Shown: positions 316 through 43,293 of the stretch, piece after piece
Position numbering within the stretch: position 1 is the stretch's first letter
Layout: every line of letters starts with the position of its first letter
Sequence record: PV357169.1
DNA length: 43,293 bases
Reading direction: 5' to 3' (one strand)
DNA from: a phage
The notes under the pieces: model-generated
What the model was told of the DNA's origin: nothing
Database searches by the model: none
Seen by the model: only the letters and a program-made list of their open reading frames with translations
Program-made: the position numbers and the translations under genes

Positions 316-350
316 CAAAGCCCCCCCCCCCCTGTAGTTGGGGGCTTTTC
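316..350 (+). terminator. Hairpin terminator after the last gene (poly-C tract / GGGGG stem followed by CTTTTCCTTTT)
   Basis: C12 run at 321-332, loop TGTAGTT, GGGGG at 340-344, then T-rich tail. Confidence 0.45.
321..332 (+). repeat. Homopolymer tract C12
   Basis: Seen directly; matched by a G13 tract at 562-574 about 230 bp downstream. Confidence 0.9.
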
Positions 351-531
351 CTTTTGTAGGTTAGTATTTATAAGTACTATTCCAGGTGCATATACGAAGT
401 TATCTGCAAGTGGGTACAAGAGAAGCGCCTGGAACATCACAAGGACTTCTCCCCCTGCGCAGGTGTATATCTGAACTCGAAATTTGTTATACTTACCCGA
501 CAGGGTCCCTCACCCTCAACGCGCCCAATTG

Positions 532-544
532 CCCCCATAGGGGG
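532..544 (+). repeat. Perfect palindrome CCCCCATAGGGGG
   Basis: Seen directly; as I recall the same 13-mer lies in the T7 terminal repeat, which suggests proximity to a genome end. Confidence 0.6.
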
Positions 545-561
545 TGTCCTGGGAGAATTTA

Positions 562-574
562 GGGGGGGGGGGGG
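562..574 (+). repeat. Homopolymer tract G13
   Basis: Seen directly. Confidence 0.9.
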
Positions 575-7648: not shown

Positions 7649-8439
7649 TGGACCAGCCCTGGCTTAGAGCGTGCAAGCGCCTGGCCGTGGGGCAGAGGGC
7701 ACGCTTTCGGTGCTGCGGCAGGGACTCCGCCGGGGTGCTCTATAATAACCCGGATGCCTGGGAATACTATTGCCACCGCTGCAAACAGGTAGGCAAGGAG
7801 CGCAAGCAGTACCAGCGCATACAGTTACAGGAAGAGCCGAGGGTGCAGCCCTCTGCACCTGCAGATGCAATTTGCATTAGCCAAGCGCCTGCAGAAACGC
7901 AGAGTTTTATTTACGGATTCCTTGCTTCAAAGGGAATCATGCCTGAAATGGTGGGGGATGCAGAATGGAGCAAAGAGAAACAGCGGATAATCTTCCGTGT
8001 CGGAAGCGCTGCTCTGGGCCGTGCAGTACATGCTCGGCAGCAACCGAAGTGGGTAATGTACGGCCAGCCAATAGCTTTCGCTGTCGCGGAACCTGCCGTA
8101 GCACCGGCTGTAGCTGCGGGCGCTCCTCTAAAGGTCGTGCTCACAGAGGACTTACTCTCAGCCCTGAAGATACAGCACGCAGTTACGAGCTACAGTGCGT
8201 TGAACGTGCAGGCTATAGCTATGCTGGGTACACGCTTGCCCACGCAGCTAAGGGCCTGGCTGATTCAGAATCGCCCGGAAGTGATTCTAATGTTGGACAA
8301 TGACCCGGCAGGACATGCTGGGGTAGCGGCAACACGCCGGGCACTGCGCCCGTTCATGCAGTGCCGAGAACACTACTTCGCTGCGGATCCTAAGGACGCA
8401 GAAATCAAAGAGATACTGGAGGCATTAACTTGGACTTAA
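7648..8439 (+). CDS. DNA primase (zinc-ribbon + TOPRIM)
   Basis: CCGRDSAG...YYCHRCKQ zinc-binding pattern; acidic TOPRIM motifs LTEDLL and MLDNDPAG. Confidence 0.7.
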   Translation: MDQPWLRACKRLAVGQRARFRCCGRDSAGVLYNNPDAWEYYCHRCKQVGKERKQYQRIQLQEEPRVQPSAPADAICISQAPAETQSFIYGFLASKGIMPEMVGDAEWSKEKQRIIFRVGSAALGRAVHARQQPKWVMYGQPIAFAVAEPAVAPAVAAGAPLKVVLTEDLLSALKIQHAVTSYSALNVQAIAMLGTRLPTQLRAWLIQNRPEVILMLDNDPAGHAGVAATRRALRPFMQCREHYFAADPKDAEIKEILEALTWT

Positions 8440-25727: not shown

Positions 25728-25770
25728 GCGCCCCTGGTGCCTTCGGGTGCCGGGGGCTTTTTTTTTTTGT
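25728..25770 (+). terminator. Rho-independent terminator after the capsid module
   Basis: GC-rich hairpin with TTCG loop (GCGCCCCTGGTGCC-TTCG-GGTGCCGGGGGC) followed by T11. Confidence 0.8.
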
Positions 25771-37365: not shown

Positions 37366-37668
37366 ATGGCAGGGGCGGCTAAACGCAGCCGTCTCTCGGA
37401 GCTGCATCGCATGTTCACAGAGGCTTTGATTGAAGAGATCAAACAGTCTAAAGAAGATGAGGTGCCGCTCCCGGCCGCAGATAAGTCAGTCATCGCTAAA
37501 TTCTTGAAGGATAATGATATCACTGCGGATGCAGATTCCGAGGAGATGCAGGACCTTCGTGATGAATTTGATGATGAACTAGCGGCACGCAGAGAGGCGC
37601 GTAAACAAGAAATTTTAGGTAAGATTAGTGGGTCTGACTCTGAGGATTTACTAGAAGGAATTGTCTAA
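37366..37668 (+). CDS. Terminase small subunit (putative)
   Basis: 100-aa acidic protein immediately upstream of the large terminase. Confidence 0.5.
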   Translation: MAGAAKRSRLSELHRMFTEALIEEIKQSKEDEVPLPAADKSVIAKFLKDNDITADADSEEMQDLRDEFDDELAARREARKQEILGKISGSDSEDLLEGIV

Positions 37669-39524
37669 TGGTATCGGCGAAGACTGCGCGAAGACTGCGC
37701 ATGCTCAACCAGAAACTTGCCGGCTATAGTGCGAATCCGCGCAGTATTCCCAAAGAGGAGCGCGAGGATATCGCCATGATGATGGCGGCTACCCTCGGCA
37801 ATTTTAGGGAGTTCGCATATATAGGTATGCGCTTCCTGGGCTTTACGCTCACGGAGATGCAAGCCGATATTGCAGAGTACATGCAGAAAGGTCCTAGGAA
37901 GCGCATGGTGGCTGCACAGCGTGGTGAGGCTAAATCTACACTAGCTGCGCTGTATGCTGTCTGGCGGCTCATCCAGGACCAATCCTGCCGTATACTGATT
38001 GTATCCGGTGCGGAGAAGCAGGCGTCCGACGTTGCGAACTTAATCATTCGTATGCTGGAAACCTGGCCTCTGTTGTGTTACCTGAAGGCCGACCCTACTC
38101 GTGGGGACCGTACTTCATTTGAAGGCTATGACGTCAACTGCGACTTGAAACCGCTGGATAAGTCTGCCAGCGTAGCTTGTGTCGGTATCACTGCATCCCT
38201 GCAAGGGAAGCGTGCTGACCTGTTGATTCCAGATGATATTGAGACCACCAAGAACGGTTTGACACAAACCCAGCGTGAGCAGTTGCTGATGATTTCGAAA
38301 GACTTCGCGGCTATCTGTACGCACGGGGATACGCTGTACCTGGGTACACCACAGACCAAGGACAGTATTTATAAAACCCTGCCGGGGCGTGGTTTCGAGG
38401 TCCGAGTGTGGCCTGGACGCATCCCGTCAGTTGAAATGGAAGAACGATATGGAAGTACACTTGCTCCTTATATACTGCAGCTCATTGAGCGGGGTTATAA
38501 ACGAACCGGGTTCGGAGTAGATGGGACGTTAGGTGAGAGCACTGACACCGGTCGATACGACGAGGATGCGCTGATTGAGAAGGAGCTGGACTTCGGCCCA
38601 GAGGGTTTCCAGCTGCAATACATGCTTGACACAACCTTGTCTGATCAGATGCGCACCCGTATCAAGTTGTCGGATATGCTCGTGTACTCTGGTAGCCTAG
38701 ATTCCTCTCCTGAGACCTTCTCCTACATTGCGGACCGTCGGTACTTGTACCAGCATGAGCATGAGGGGATTATGGGGCAGCAGATGTACTCCCCGGCATT
38801 CTATGGAGATATGCATCTACCATATCAGCATAAGGTGCTAGTGGTGGACCCAGCGGGTTGTGGTGGGGATGAAGTGTCCTACGCTGCAGGCGGTGCTGCT
38901 AACTCGTACATTCACTTATTCTCCGTTGGGGGTTTCCAAGGAGGTGTAAGCACTGAGAATATTGATAAGCTCATTGATTTGTGCGTAGAGTTGGACATCT
39001 CAGACATGGTGGTGGAGAGTAACATGGGGCACGGTACTGTGTCTATGCTGATCCTGAACCGCCTAAGAGAGCGTCGCCTTGCTGGTATTGGTGTGCGCGA
39101 CATCAACAACACCACGCAGAAAGAGCGCCGTATTATCGACACAATCAGCCCTGTAACTCGACGCCATCGCCTGGTGGTGCATGAGCGTGCTATTCAAGAT
39201 GATATTGGGACTTGTATGCTCTACTCCCGAGACCGTCGGTGGTTGTACTCTGCGTTCGCACAGCTCGCAGGTATTACGTACGACCGAGGGAGTTTAGCGA
39301 AGGATGACCGAGCAGACGCCATCGCTATGATGGTGGCAGTACTGAATGGACACCTGGTAGAAGACGAGAAAGTAGTAGCTGAGCGTGAGTCCGAGAAGAT
39401 GGCCCTGGCCTTCATTGAGAACCCACTGGATTGGGCACAGAGTAAATTGTCTAAGGGACTTCGCGGTGTAGCGGCTCGGTTGCAGAACCGTGGCAGAGGT
39501 AAACAACATAGAGGAAGAAGATAA
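37668..39524 (+). CDS. Terminase large subunit (T7 gp19-like)
   Basis: ACVGITASLQGKRADLLIPDDIE and RILIVSGAEKQASDV closely parallel recalled T7 gp19 segments. Confidence 0.9.
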   Translation: MVSAKTARRLRMLNQKLAGYSANPRSIPKEEREDIAMMMAATLGNFREFAYIGMRFLGFTLTEMQADIAEYMQKGPRKRMVAAQRGEAKSTLAALYAVWRLIQDQSCRILIVSGAEKQASDVANLIIRMLETWPLLCYLKADPTRGDRTSFEGYDVNCDLKPLDKSASVACVGITASLQGKRADLLIPDDIETTKNGLTQTQREQLLMISKDFAAICTHGDTLYLGTPQTKDSIYKTLPGRGFEVRVWPGRIPSVEMEERYGSTLAPYILQLIERGYKRTGFGVDGTLGESTDTGRYDEDALIEKELDFGPEGFQLQYMLDTTLSDQMRTRIKLSDMLVYSGSLDSSPETFSYIADRRYLYQHEHEGIMGQQMYSPAFYGDMHLPYQHKVLVVDPAGCGGDEVSYAAGGAANSYIHLFSVGGFQGGVSTENIDKLIDLCVELDISDMVVESNMGHGTVSMLILNRLRERRLAGIGVRDINNTTQKERRIIDTISPVTRRHRLVVHERAIQDDIGTCMLYSRDRRWLYSAFAQLAGITYDRGSLAKDDRADAIAMMVAVLNGHLVEDEKVVAERESEKMALAFIENPLDWAQSKLSKGLRGVAARLQNRGRGKQHRGRR

Positions 39525-40745: not shown

Positions 40746-41340
40746 GGTTATAGCAGCACTCGCCGGGGCGACCATGCTCGGCGGAGCTATTACTGAGGTA
40801 GTCCAACACAACGAGGGCTTGAGCCTTACAGCATACAAAGACAGTGCAGGCATCCCTACAATCTGCTACGGGGAGACAAAGGGCGTCAAAATGGGCCAGA
40901 GAGCCACACTGAGCGATTGTCAGAAGCAACTGATAGAATCAGCAGGGGAGCATGCAAAGGCTCTTGACGGGCTTCCTATGCAGCTCTCTGACGTAGCCTT
41001 AGTTGGGTCCATAGACTTCATTTATAACGTAGGCGTAGCTAGCTTCAATGGCAGCGCCGTGAAACGGCATCTCAAAAACCTTGATTATGCAGCGGCTGGA
41101 AAGGCTGTGCTGGACTGGCGTTACATTAGTAAGTACCAGCAGAAGTCCCCAGGAACTGGTTGGGTTTATAAGGGTAGCAACCGCTGGATTTTCGACTGCT
41201 CCCAGTATATTAACGGGCAGCGCAATAAGGTATGCTGGGGCCTATGGGAACGTAGGCAGTGGCAAGCAAAGGCTATTGGTAATCGGTATGACTCATTGGA
41301 GTCTGCTGTTAATGCACTCATGAAAGGACAGGGGATATAA
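40729..41340 (+). CDS. Endolysin, T4-lysozyme-like muramidase with N-terminal SAR-type hydrophobic segment
   Basis: Catalytic pattern E-x8-D-x5-T (NEGLSLTAYKDSAGIPTICYGET); N-terminal VIAALAGATMLGGAI. Confidence 0.7.
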   Translation: MSLRTRVIAALAGATMLGGAITEVVQHNEGLSLTAYKDSAGIPTICYGETKGVKMGQRATLSDCQKQLIESAGEHAKALDGLPMQLSDVALVGSIDFIYNVGVASFNGSAVKRHLKNLDYAAAGKAVLDWRYISKYQQKSPGTGWVYKGSNRWIFDCSQYINGQRNKVCWGLWERRQWQAKAIGNRYDSLESAVNALMKGQGI

Positions 41341-42995
41341 TGGCACTTACAAATTTAATTTACAATGCGAGCAAGAATAATGACCGTGAACAGTGGCGTC
41401 GTAGTCTTGTAGAGGCAGGGTTAACACTTGTTGATGGTAGCTTTGAAGAGGGTGCTACTGCAAACAGTAAAACTGATGCTGTTTGGCATATTGCCGGTGG
41501 TCAGTGTTATACGTGGGATGCCACATTCCCTAAAACCGTTCCTGCTGCCTCAACCCCAGAAACTTCTGGCGGTGTTGGTTCAGGCGCATGGGTGAGTGTT
41601 GGCGATGCAAGTTTGAGATCGGACCTCTCAAGCACAGACGTCGGCAGAGGTGCCTCTTTAATTGGGACAACTGACGGTAGTAATGTGCAAGAGGCTTTGG
41701 ATGATATTAATAACTCAATATACCAGGACCCTCTTACCAAATGGCATCTTGGTGGTACGCTAAAAATAAAGCAGGGAGTGTATGATGTATCCTCAGCACT
41801 TACCCTCGATTATGGCAATTATGATGCTTCGTTTATAGGCTCTCCTGGTGTTCGCGCTCATTACGAAGGCGAGAACATGGCAGAAACCATCTTTAATTGT
41901 CAGGTTGCTGATTTTAACTTGAAGATGCTAGGAGATACCGTTGGGGCGACACAACGTGTACACGCATATGATTATCTGGGGAACATTACGCTTAAAGGTT
42001 CGGGATCGTCTTATGGTCTTGTTGTATCCAGTAAAGCATATACTAAGTTAGAGAACATAGTATCTTACGGACATACCAACGGGGAAGGTTTACGAACAGA
42101 TGGCGTTTTAACGTCGGAACTGGATAATGTGTACCTGCAGGCGAATCGTATTGGGTGGCGAGCGGTTAATTATGATGATGTGTCAGAACTTAATGCAATT
42201 ACGGTCAACAGATTAACGGCAAGCCAGAATACACAATGGGGTATTCTTGGCGACAGATGGGGTGCAGGGACTACCATCAACAGCCTTACCTGTGAGGGTA
42301 ACGGCACGCAAGGTAATGCTGGAACTGGCGGTATGCAGATTGCCGTGAACGGTCTTAATGGATCATGTGCTTTGGTGCTTAACAACCCATATTTCGAGGG
42401 TAATGCCGGTGGTTCTGACCTTGCCATTGATAACACGGGAACGCGCCCAGTAACCGTAATTATTAACGGCGGCGGCTTCCATCGTGTTAGTAATACGGCT
42501 TACACCATAAACAACTTAAATATTACAAGTTCTGGCGGGGGTAAAGTAACCGTAATTCTCAATGGTACGACATTCCAGAGCGCGGGTTCTTATGCCCCAA
42601 GCAGCACGCGACCGTTCTGGGTTACTGGCGCTAATTGTGAAGTAATCGACATTGGCTGCACATTCACGGAGCAAACCAGCAAGAATACTTCTGTCTCTGC
42701 TGGAAGTATTCCTCGTTCTGGAAGGATTAGTGCCGCGGGTGGCATAGGAATTGCGCCTGGTGTTTCATCAGTAAACGTAGTAGCTACGGGGGTATATGAT
42801 GTAGTTTTTTCTCATGAATTATCTACATATCTTGATGGGTATGTGGTACAGATAACGCCAATATCGGCGGGTGACTCCGTGGCTTGTGATGTTGAATATT
42901 TCAGCACAACCCGATTCAGGGTTACATTGAGGAACACTGTCAGCGGCGCTGGCATAGCGAGTGCATTCGCTTATAGTGTCACAAGGCTTGTATAA
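41340..42995 (+). CDS. Tailspike protein, probable polysaccharide depolymerase (beta-helix-like)
   Basis: 551 aa, Gly/Asn/Thr-rich repetitive segments typical of parallel beta-helices; right-end position. Confidence 0.6.
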   Translation: MALTNLIYNASKNNDREQWRRSLVEAGLTLVDGSFEEGATANSKTDAVWHIAGGQCYTWDATFPKTVPAASTPETSGGVGSGAWVSVGDASLRSDLSSTDVGRGASLIGTTDGSNVQEALDDINNSIYQDPLTKWHLGGTLKIKQGVYDVSSALTLDYGNYDASFIGSPGVRAHYEGENMAETIFNCQVADFNLKMLGDTVGATQRVHAYDYLGNITLKGSGSSYGLVVSSKAYTKLENIVSYGHTNGEGLRTDGVLTSELDNVYLQANRIGWRAVNYDDVSELNAITVNRLTASQNTQWGILGDRWGAGTTINSLTCEGNGTQGNAGTGGMQIAVNGLNGSCALVLNNPYFEGNAGGSDLAIDNTGTRPVTVIINGGGFHRVSNTAYTINNLNITSSGGGKVTVILNGTTFQSAGSYAPSSTRPFWVTGANCEVIDIGCTFTEQTSKNTSVSAGSIPRSGRISAAGGIGIAPGVSSVNVVATGVYDVVFSHELSTYLDGYVVQITPISAGDSVACDVEYFSTTRFRVTLRNTVSGAGIASAFAYSVTRLV

Positions 42996-43045: not shown

Positions 43046-43293
43046 ATGAACGAAATGTTCTCACAAGATGGTAAAGGTTCAACGGGAATCTTAACTAATA
43101 AACAAGCAGTGGCTCGACACTTCGGAGTTAAGCAATCAGAGGTTGTTTACTTCTCAGTGGGTGCTCTGCTTGCTGGTTACAAAGTCATCTATGACAAAGT
43201 GACACAGCGTGCTTACTCATTACCTGCTGATATTGGTTCTGGGGTTACTGTTGTAAGCCTTAGTCCTGCCGGAGTATTAGTACACTCTGCCGG
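43046..43293 (+). CDS. 5' part of the junction-spanning gene (continues at 1-314 after removing the 91-nt overlap)
   Basis: ATG with GAGG RBS; the ORF runs off the end of the window. Confidence 0.5.
   Translation, partial: MNEMFSQDGKGSTGILTNKQAVARHFGVKQSEVVYFSVGALLAGYKVIYDKVTQRAYSLPADIGSGVTVVSLSPAGVLVHSA
43203..43293 (+). repeat. 91-nt exact duplicate of window positions 1-91 (circular-assembly overlap)
   Basis: Seen directly; identical base for base. Confidence 0.95.

Follow-up and report, generated by a model that had tools for sequence, protein, structure and literature searches.

Termini of T7-type phages and the genome analysed

Phages of the T7 type replicate as head-to-tail concatemers in which a single copy of the terminal repeat lies between adjoining genomes, and their terminase acts at fixed positions (PMC5557969, PMC10438801). 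The second copy of the repeat arises by extension synthesis at staggered nicks (PMC5557969). In virion DNA the repeat stands at either end, and assembly from short reads merges its two copies into one and returns the genome as a circle (PMC5557969, PMC10438801). In the genus Drulisvirus the termini of phage fHe-Kpn01 have been established by PhageTerm, restriction analysis, fragment ligation and Sanger sequencing; they are blunt and carry a 222-bp direct repeat (PMC7291057). The fHe-Kpn01 record opens with CCTCACCCTGAACGACGCCTATTGCCCCCATAGGGGG (CCTCACCCTGAACG...CCCCCATAGGGGG) and its repeat closes with ...GGTGGGCGCTC (GGGCGCTC). A third PhageTerm peak in that phage, at position 7873, was ascribed to a site-specific nick (PMC7291057), and a homologous nick site may be present in the genome described here. 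The record of T7 itself holds the 13-mer CCCCCATAGGGGG at bases 26–38 of its 160-bp repeat, that is, 25 nt inside the end, and a class II RNA polymerase (RNAP) pause motif, ATCTGTT, at 161–167, directly to the right of the repeat.

The window analysed in this work is a stretch of phage DNA of 43,293 nt (record PV357169.1). Its first 91 nt are identical to its last 91 nt (1–91 versus 43203–43293). This identity is the closure overlap of the assembler, which makes the record a circularised assembly with some 43,202 unique bases, as the sequence-only reading of this DNA had supposed. The repeat at the junction is present as one collapsed copy and closure is by the 91-nt overlap, which is what phages with direct terminal repeats (DTRs) give. 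The break of the window falls within the last ORF, and this gene is consequently missing from ORF listings.

In BLAST searches a 24-kb query proved 96% identical to Klebsiella phage KPV811 and approximately 91–93% identical to Escherichia phages Minorna and AV102 and to Shigella phage SFN6B, its best matches all being members of Drulisvirus (Autographiviridae, Slopekvirinae). By sequence, then, the window is assigned to Drulisvirus as a T7-like Klebsiella/E. coli podovirus of the KP34 group. PHROG matches indicate that it encodes a single-subunit RNAP together with T7-type small and large terminase subunits (TerS & TerL). The corresponding genes lie on the plus strand at 37366–37668 (TerS; phrog_891, 2.5e-31) and 37668–39524 (TerL; phrog_38, 9e-115), and the junction is the expected substrate of the enzymes that this segment (37366–39524) encodes.

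Attention had been drawn to a run of twelve C residues (C12, 321–332), a run of thirteen G residues (G13, 562–574) and a palindrome, CCCCCATAGGGGG, at 532–544, all three of which are found at exactly these coordinates. We regard it as very likely that this region is the concatemer junction of a circularly closed Drulisvirus assembly and that both homopolymers are genuine.

Edges of the predicted terminal repeat

The collapsed direct terminal repeat is predicted to occupy about 508–763 (256 bp, each edge ±1–2 nt), with the genome end at 507/508, because the relatives begin at CCTCACCCT, which starts at window position 508, and their repeats close with ...GGGGTGCGCTC, which ends at 763. The ends of the window phage are thus placed by homology, at roughly 75–85% identity to these relatives. 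CCTCACCCT is base 1 of the fHe-Kpn01, AttikonH1, KpV71, SAA231 and KPPK108.1 records and base 2 of KP34, and GGGGTGCGCTC constitutes the last bases of the repeats annotated in the relatives. Annotated repeats with both edges in common are those of KP34 (216 bp), AttikonH1 (247 bp), KpV71 (246 bp) and SAA231 (268 bp), while the records of KpV74, NTUH-K2044-K1-1, KPPK108.1/.2, AttikonH4 and FK1979 start or end at the equivalent of window position 508/509. The annotated edges vary by 1–2 nt: KP34 begins one C earlier and SAA231 closes two bases later. Membership in the T7-type DTR class is supported by the alignment of both edges with mapped repeats of the same genus. A genome terminus does therefore lie within the interval that was flagged, at 507/508 by homology to relatives with mapped ends. 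The runs themselves, which had been proposed as the boundaries of the repeat, do not coincide with its edges: G13 is inside, C12 is 176 nt outside, and the repeat extends about 190 nt past G13, half of it lying beyond the flagged interval.

An alignment of 15 junctions, drawn from GenBank relatives and IMG/VR contigs, shows conservation concentrated exactly at the two edges of the repeat. The conserved blocks are an element of about 47 nt at 461–507, the terminal CCTCACCCTsArCG, the palindrome with its 3' flank, the G-rich tract, and at the right edge CTGTGGGCCATAGGGGTGCGCTC followed by TGCCTTGCTTATTTTG. A T-rich motif, TGCCTTGCTTATTTTGTGC, on the plus strand at 764–782 adjoins the repeat on the right and is kept in 14 of the 15 junctions. 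It stands at the position of the T7 class II pause signal, whose sequence it does not match. The class II pause sequence (H)ATCTGTT has six matches in the window, against 3.7 expected by chance, and none of them is within 10 kb of the junction. A scan of 1–2300 for sigma-70 promoters gave one match (1495–1523), fewer than in shuffled sequence, and is uninformative on the junction.

The DTR of the window agrees with those of other Drulisvirus phages in its left edge (CCTCACCCTsAACG), in having the palindrome at +24/25 and a G-rich stretch near +54, and in its right edge (GGGCCATAGGGGTGCGCTC, with TGCCTTGCTTATTTTG following). Its location, with the last tail gene on one side and the early region on the other, is shared as well. 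In the ORF map it is a non-coding block between the last late gene, whose ORF ends at 314, and the early genes. It differs from the others in being predicted rather than mapped and in having an extra insert of about 35 nt, TCTAGGTGGCTGGATGTCTGGACGTCTAGATGG, after the G tract, which is partly common to SFN6B. This extra segment (575–612, TATCTAGGTGGCTGGATGTCTGGACGTCTAGATGG) contains repeated GTCTAGA/GTCTGGA units and is absent from most Klebsiella relatives; a shorter version, GTCTAGACGTCTAGATGG, occurs in SFN6B, AV102 and the IMG/VR contigs L066 and L069.

The non-coding region to the right of the G tract (575–1300) is dense with short direct repeats, among them TAGTGGGCCG twice at 800–819, GCTATCTCTAG three times at 847–882, ACTAyCCACC four times at about 940–980, and CTAGT-rich units at 1094–1139 and 1249–1289, which recall the arrays flanking the T7 terminal repeat. 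The ORF called at 790–1071 is probably spurious.

The annotation of the genus is not unanimous. In SU552A and KP-Rio/2015 a "left direct repeat" is annotated directly after the G tract (1–149 of our SU552A locus, L011; 248–279 and 316–461 of the KP-Rio/2015 locus, L001), a start some 68 nt further in than that of the repeat which was mapped for fHe-Kpn01 and which version 2 of the KP34 record annotates. The ends of SU552A were assigned by homology only (PMC4411677). Since it conflicts with the mapped ends of fHe-Kpn01 and the ends of SU552A were set by homology, we rejected this feature as the true repeat; both annotations are probably cut off at the G tract.

If the T7 scheme applies, replicating concatemers would contain the block at about 508–763 once, as the assembly does, and virion DNA would have it at either end. 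A terminase cut of the T7 type would make virion DNA begin with CCTCACCCT (508) and close with ...GCGCTC (763), the repeat being duplicated through extension synthesis at staggered nicks. The order of virion DNA would then be 508...763, the whole of the genome through to 507, and a second copy of 508–763.

One might alternatively suppose that this phage has no fixed ends at 508 and 763, packages its DNA unlike its relatives, and retains here a mere remnant of a repeat. Its pre-terminus element is indeed of a minority type (TTATACTTACCCGACAGGGTC), and its right-end region is rearranged, with remnants of tailspike and HNH endonuclease genes. The same variant is, however, also found in KP-Rio/2015 and in contigs L075 and L133, and the edge blocks, the palindrome and the terminase genes are all intact. 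We consider this proposal very improbable.

The homopolymers and the segment between them

Runs of seven or more identical bases are rare in the 43,293 bases of the window. Besides C12 and G13 there is only T11 (25758–25768), the tail of a strong hairpin terminator at 25730–25768 (GCCCCTGGTGCCTTCGGGTGCCGGGGGC-T11) located behind a small ORF downstream of the capsid gene. From base composition approximately 1e-3 runs of C12 and 2e-3 runs of G13 would be expected in 43 kb. With expectations of only some 0.001–0.002, the presence of these two is non-random.

On sequence evidence C12 is the expanded 5' arm of an ordinary rho-independent terminator which travels with the 3' end of the tailspike gene, and is unrelated to packaging. 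The terminator of the last ORF occupies 317–355 on the plus strand and reads AAAG-C12-TGTAGTT-GGGGGC-TTTTCCTTTT. It consists of a G+C stem-loop followed by a run of T residues, stands directly behind the stop codon and is conserved together with the upstream gene. A terminator scan matched 329–344 plus the T tail, and the RNA folds at -15.8 kcal/mol (z-score -1.4 against shuffles in which the C and G runs were retained). Rfam searches of 1–2000 returned only a chance, sub-threshold ctRNA match on this hairpin (18.7 bits where the gathering score is 50, E = 1).

The homologous terminator of Schitoviridae phage Moonfish is AAAGCCCCC-GTAGTT-GGGGGCTTTTTT, with C5 as its 5' arm, and that of SFN6B has C11/G6. 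These two Shigella phages share with the window the 3' end of the gene (88–89% identity), the loop (G)TAGTT, the GGGGGC arm and the T tail; the 5' arm is what differs, being C5 in Moonfish, C11 in SFN6B and C12 in the window. Since any five of the twelve C residues can pair with GGGGG, expansion of the arm alters only the size of the loop. Among some thirty Drulisvirus-like loci the C-run is found only in the window and SFN6B, at -187/-186 from the terminus; in the window it starts 187 nt upstream of the genome end. The SFN6B record (L003/L134) was itself opened inside the C-run.

The gene upstream is a tailspike remnant. The last ORF (plus strand, 43047–43293 joined to 92–314, with its 3' part at 1–314 and TAA at 312–314) specifies 156 amino acids, of which residues 1–94 match tailspike N-termini and 90–156 a tailspike C-terminus in PHROG. 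Residues 92–156 are 88% identical to residues 534–598 of the SFN6B tailspike. As judged from these matches, the ORF is an N-terminal anchor fused in frame to the C-terminal 65 amino acids of an SFN6B-type tailspike, and it is with the 3' end of this module that C12 would have arrived. The product is a mini-tailspike that lacks the entire catalytic body. It is preceded by a complete tailspike of 551 amino acids (41340–42995), of which only the first 100 are common to the SFN6B spike. The mini-tailspike looks like the scar of a swap of receptor-binding modules.

Between the terminator and the genome end lies the 3' remnant of an HNH homing-endonuclease gene (393–474, plus strand), identified by BLAST to annotated HNH genes with up to 97% identity. 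Its translation, YEVICKWVQEKRLEHHKDFSP, may be compared with the C-terminus of the KpV71 HNH protein, YEIICKWVLENRQEQHKAFTP. In KpV71, SAA231, BUCT86 and others the HNH gene is located between the tailspike and the right terminal repeat; the window retains only its last 27 or so codons. The intact gene occupies 1060–1614 in the loci of both KpV71 (L005) and SAA231 (L004), where a diverged copy of the pre-terminus element stands on either side of it (GTCTATACCTGGACCTGAAATTTATTAGACTCAC... upstream and GTGTATACCTGAAACCAAAAATTATTATACTCAC... downstream). It appears that the endonuclease cassette inserted into, and re-supplied, the conserved element beside the genome end. The stretch between the two runs (333–561), which had been treated as one unit, is in fact a composite of the rest of the terminator (333–355), the HNH remnant (393–474), the pre-terminus element (461–507) and the first 54 nt of the repeat (508–561).

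G13 (562–574, plus strand) belongs to a different module. It lies within the terminal repeat, 54 nt from its left end, and comparison with related genomes indicates that it is genuine sequence, conserved in position and variable in length. An uninterrupted tract of at least eight G residues is present at +53 to +56 in 17 related genomes, and clean assemblies range from G9 to G15 (AV102, 9; KpV71, SAA231 and SFN6B, 11; KP-Rio, 13; AttikonH1, 14). The G13 of the window is uninterrupted, whereas the tract is interrupted in KP34 and fHe-Kpn01, as it is in several IMG/VR contigs (for example GGGGGCGGGG or GGGGTGGGGTGGG). The conserved unit therefore appears to be a G-rich segment at that offset rather than an exact homopolymer, and the variation in length fits replication slippage on a G-rich element.

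The sequence-only reading had also offered the runs as poly-C and poly-G artefacts, produced where reads run off physical ends and bounding a collapsed repeat at 333–561. That segment is 229 bp, a plausible length for a repeat, and homopolymers at this place do disturb assemblies, as shown by the opening of the SFN6B record in the C-run and by two IMG/VR contigs, L046 (IMGVR_UViG_3300029531_000009) and L051 (IMGVR_UViG_3300045988_019900), which derail into long poly-G/poly-C garbage directly after the G tract. In addition, L051 stops precisely at CCTCACCCT, where the physical terminus lies. A long G homopolymer near the end of the DNA molecule and the derailed metagenomic contigs are both reminiscent of the poly-G run-off of two-colour Illumina chemistry. 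The tract of the window differs in being internal, 54 nt in, with conserved flanks, and in recurring in independent isolates.

Five observations make an artefact extremely unlikely. The G tract recurs, with its offset unchanged, in many isolates that were sequenced independently; sequence homologous to the relatives carries on at both sides of both runs; the mapped and annotated ends of the relatives correspond to window positions 508 and 763, not to 333 or 561; the segment 333–507, in which the terminator arm and the HNH remnant lie, is unique right-end sequence in the relatives; and the C-run, shared with SFN6B, is an expanded terminator arm which is C5 in a phage of another family.

The junction alignment shows the sequence past G13 to be colinear with SFN6B and others, and the assembly thus crosses the run correctly. 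A milder doubt, fully compatible with the region being a concatemer junction, is that the tracts are genuine and their recorded lengths of 12 and 13 wrong through slippage in sequencing or assembly. Phage assemblies are known to suffer from errors in homopolymers (PMC10438801). The relatives vary from G9 to G15, interrupted forms included, and assemblies break or derail at both runs, which are assembly breakpoints in this phage group; the lengths given in the window could thus be off by a few bases. The colinearity of the flanks with the relatives would confine any such error to length. Nothing in the window speaks against such an error, and we consider it a reasonable possibility, though less likely than not.

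The two runs are perfectly complementary, and a functional long-range inverted repeat might be envisaged, with a 12-bp G:C stem closing a 229-nt loop in single-stranded DNA or RNA and, for example, aiding duplication of the repeat or controlling read-through. The predicted minimum-energy fold of the single-stranded DNA does pair the arms (z = -2.4). Any C12/G13 pair would fold in this way, however, and the fold is uninformative. Of the thirty-odd junctions only those of the window and SFN6B have the C-run, the G tract of the others being unpartnered; one run sits in the tailspike terminator and the other in the terminal repeat, two separate modules that are exchanged independently; and the copy of G13 at the left end of virion DNA would have no C12 upstream. 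The long stem was rejected because its pairing is not conserved, and a role for it seems to us scarcely credible. Because the runs belong to different modules, co-occur in two genomes only, and would fold like any such pair, their complementarity is a coincidence of two modules.

The palindrome, the pre-terminus element and packaging

The palindrome CCCCCATAGGGGG (532–544) occupies bases 25–37 of the predicted repeat, 24 nt inside its left end, and its identification in the sequence-only reading with that of the T7 terminal repeat is borne out by the T7 record (bases 26–38). It was present in all eight GenBank Drulisvirus junctions that were read, these relatives having been chosen by BLAST, independently of the motif. 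A scan of IMG/VR for CCCCCATAGGGGGT yielded more than 120 stretches.

Immediately to the left of the repeat, on the plus strand at 461–507, is the pre-terminus element GTsTATAyCTGrA...AAATTTrTTAkACTyAC..., which adjoins the left edge and is kept in 15 of 15 aligned junctions. No second copy was found in the window at up to three mismatches. We rejected the element as a promoter for the phage RNAP since it is single-copy and unlike the MEME promoter annotated in KP-Rio/2015. It is a candidate for part of the recognition signal of the terminase.

Outside Drulisvirus, a box of the form AAAWTTSTG is situated at a fixed distance of 41–44 nt upstream of the palindrome in 21 distinct contigs which are not Drulisvirus-like, T7 included; they lie among IMG/VR loci L022–L132, T7 being L054. 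The box is typically CAYAAATTTCTGAAG, in T7 CATAAAAATCTGAG, and it is often preceded by AAAATTTTGG. In all but one of the 21 contigs a T7-type TerL (26–36% identical to that of the window) or a single-subunit RNAP is encoded nearby. The Drulisvirus counterpart, AAATTTGT, precedes the palindrome by 52 nt, an extra distance of about one helical turn. The positions of palindrome and box are thus conserved far beyond Drulisvirus, and these comparisons suggest that the two together are an ancient, conserved component of the T7-type concatemer junction.

With T7 the window has in common a short, exact DTR and a T7-type terminase, an identical 13-nt palindrome about 25 nt from the left end, and an A/T-rich ...AAAWTTSTG box just outside the left edge. 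It differs in having no other sequence similarity there, in the position of its box, about 10 nt further from the end, in its G tract, which T7 lacks, and in the replacement of the CCTAAAG repeat arrays that flank the T7 repeat by other short repeats.

We infer that the palindrome and the element at 461–507 are most likely cis-recognition features for the terminase. Our best guess at a candidate role for the G tract is that of a pause site or structural element within the packaging signal. A bolder proposal is that the palindrome and the A/T-rich box at its fixed distance are a universal cis-signal of T7-type terminases, to which Drulisvirus has added the G tract at +54 as a functional element. 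It is prompted by the retention of palindrome and box beside TerL proteins only 26–36% identical, and we think it on the whole unlikely. The added element would serve, for example, as a pause or structural mark during duplication of the repeat or cutting of the ends.

The palindrome string had no match in the searchable literature, where neither the palindrome and its box nor a G tract at +54 was found described; the literature on pacB, the T7 concatemer hairpin and poly-G in DTRs held nothing specific to these elements. The junction itself is an ordinary example of a well-known type of feature. Only two points are mildly novel: a G tract conserved at +54 in the repeats of Drulisvirus, and the depth to which the palindrome-plus-box architecture is conserved.

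For annotation, the virion genome should begin at 508 and end with a second copy of 508–763, for a length of roughly 43,458 bp, and both homopolymers belong in the record rather than being trimmed as artefacts. For those who study packaging, a palindrome and box of fixed spacing beside very divergent T7-type terminases offer a defined cis-element to mutate.
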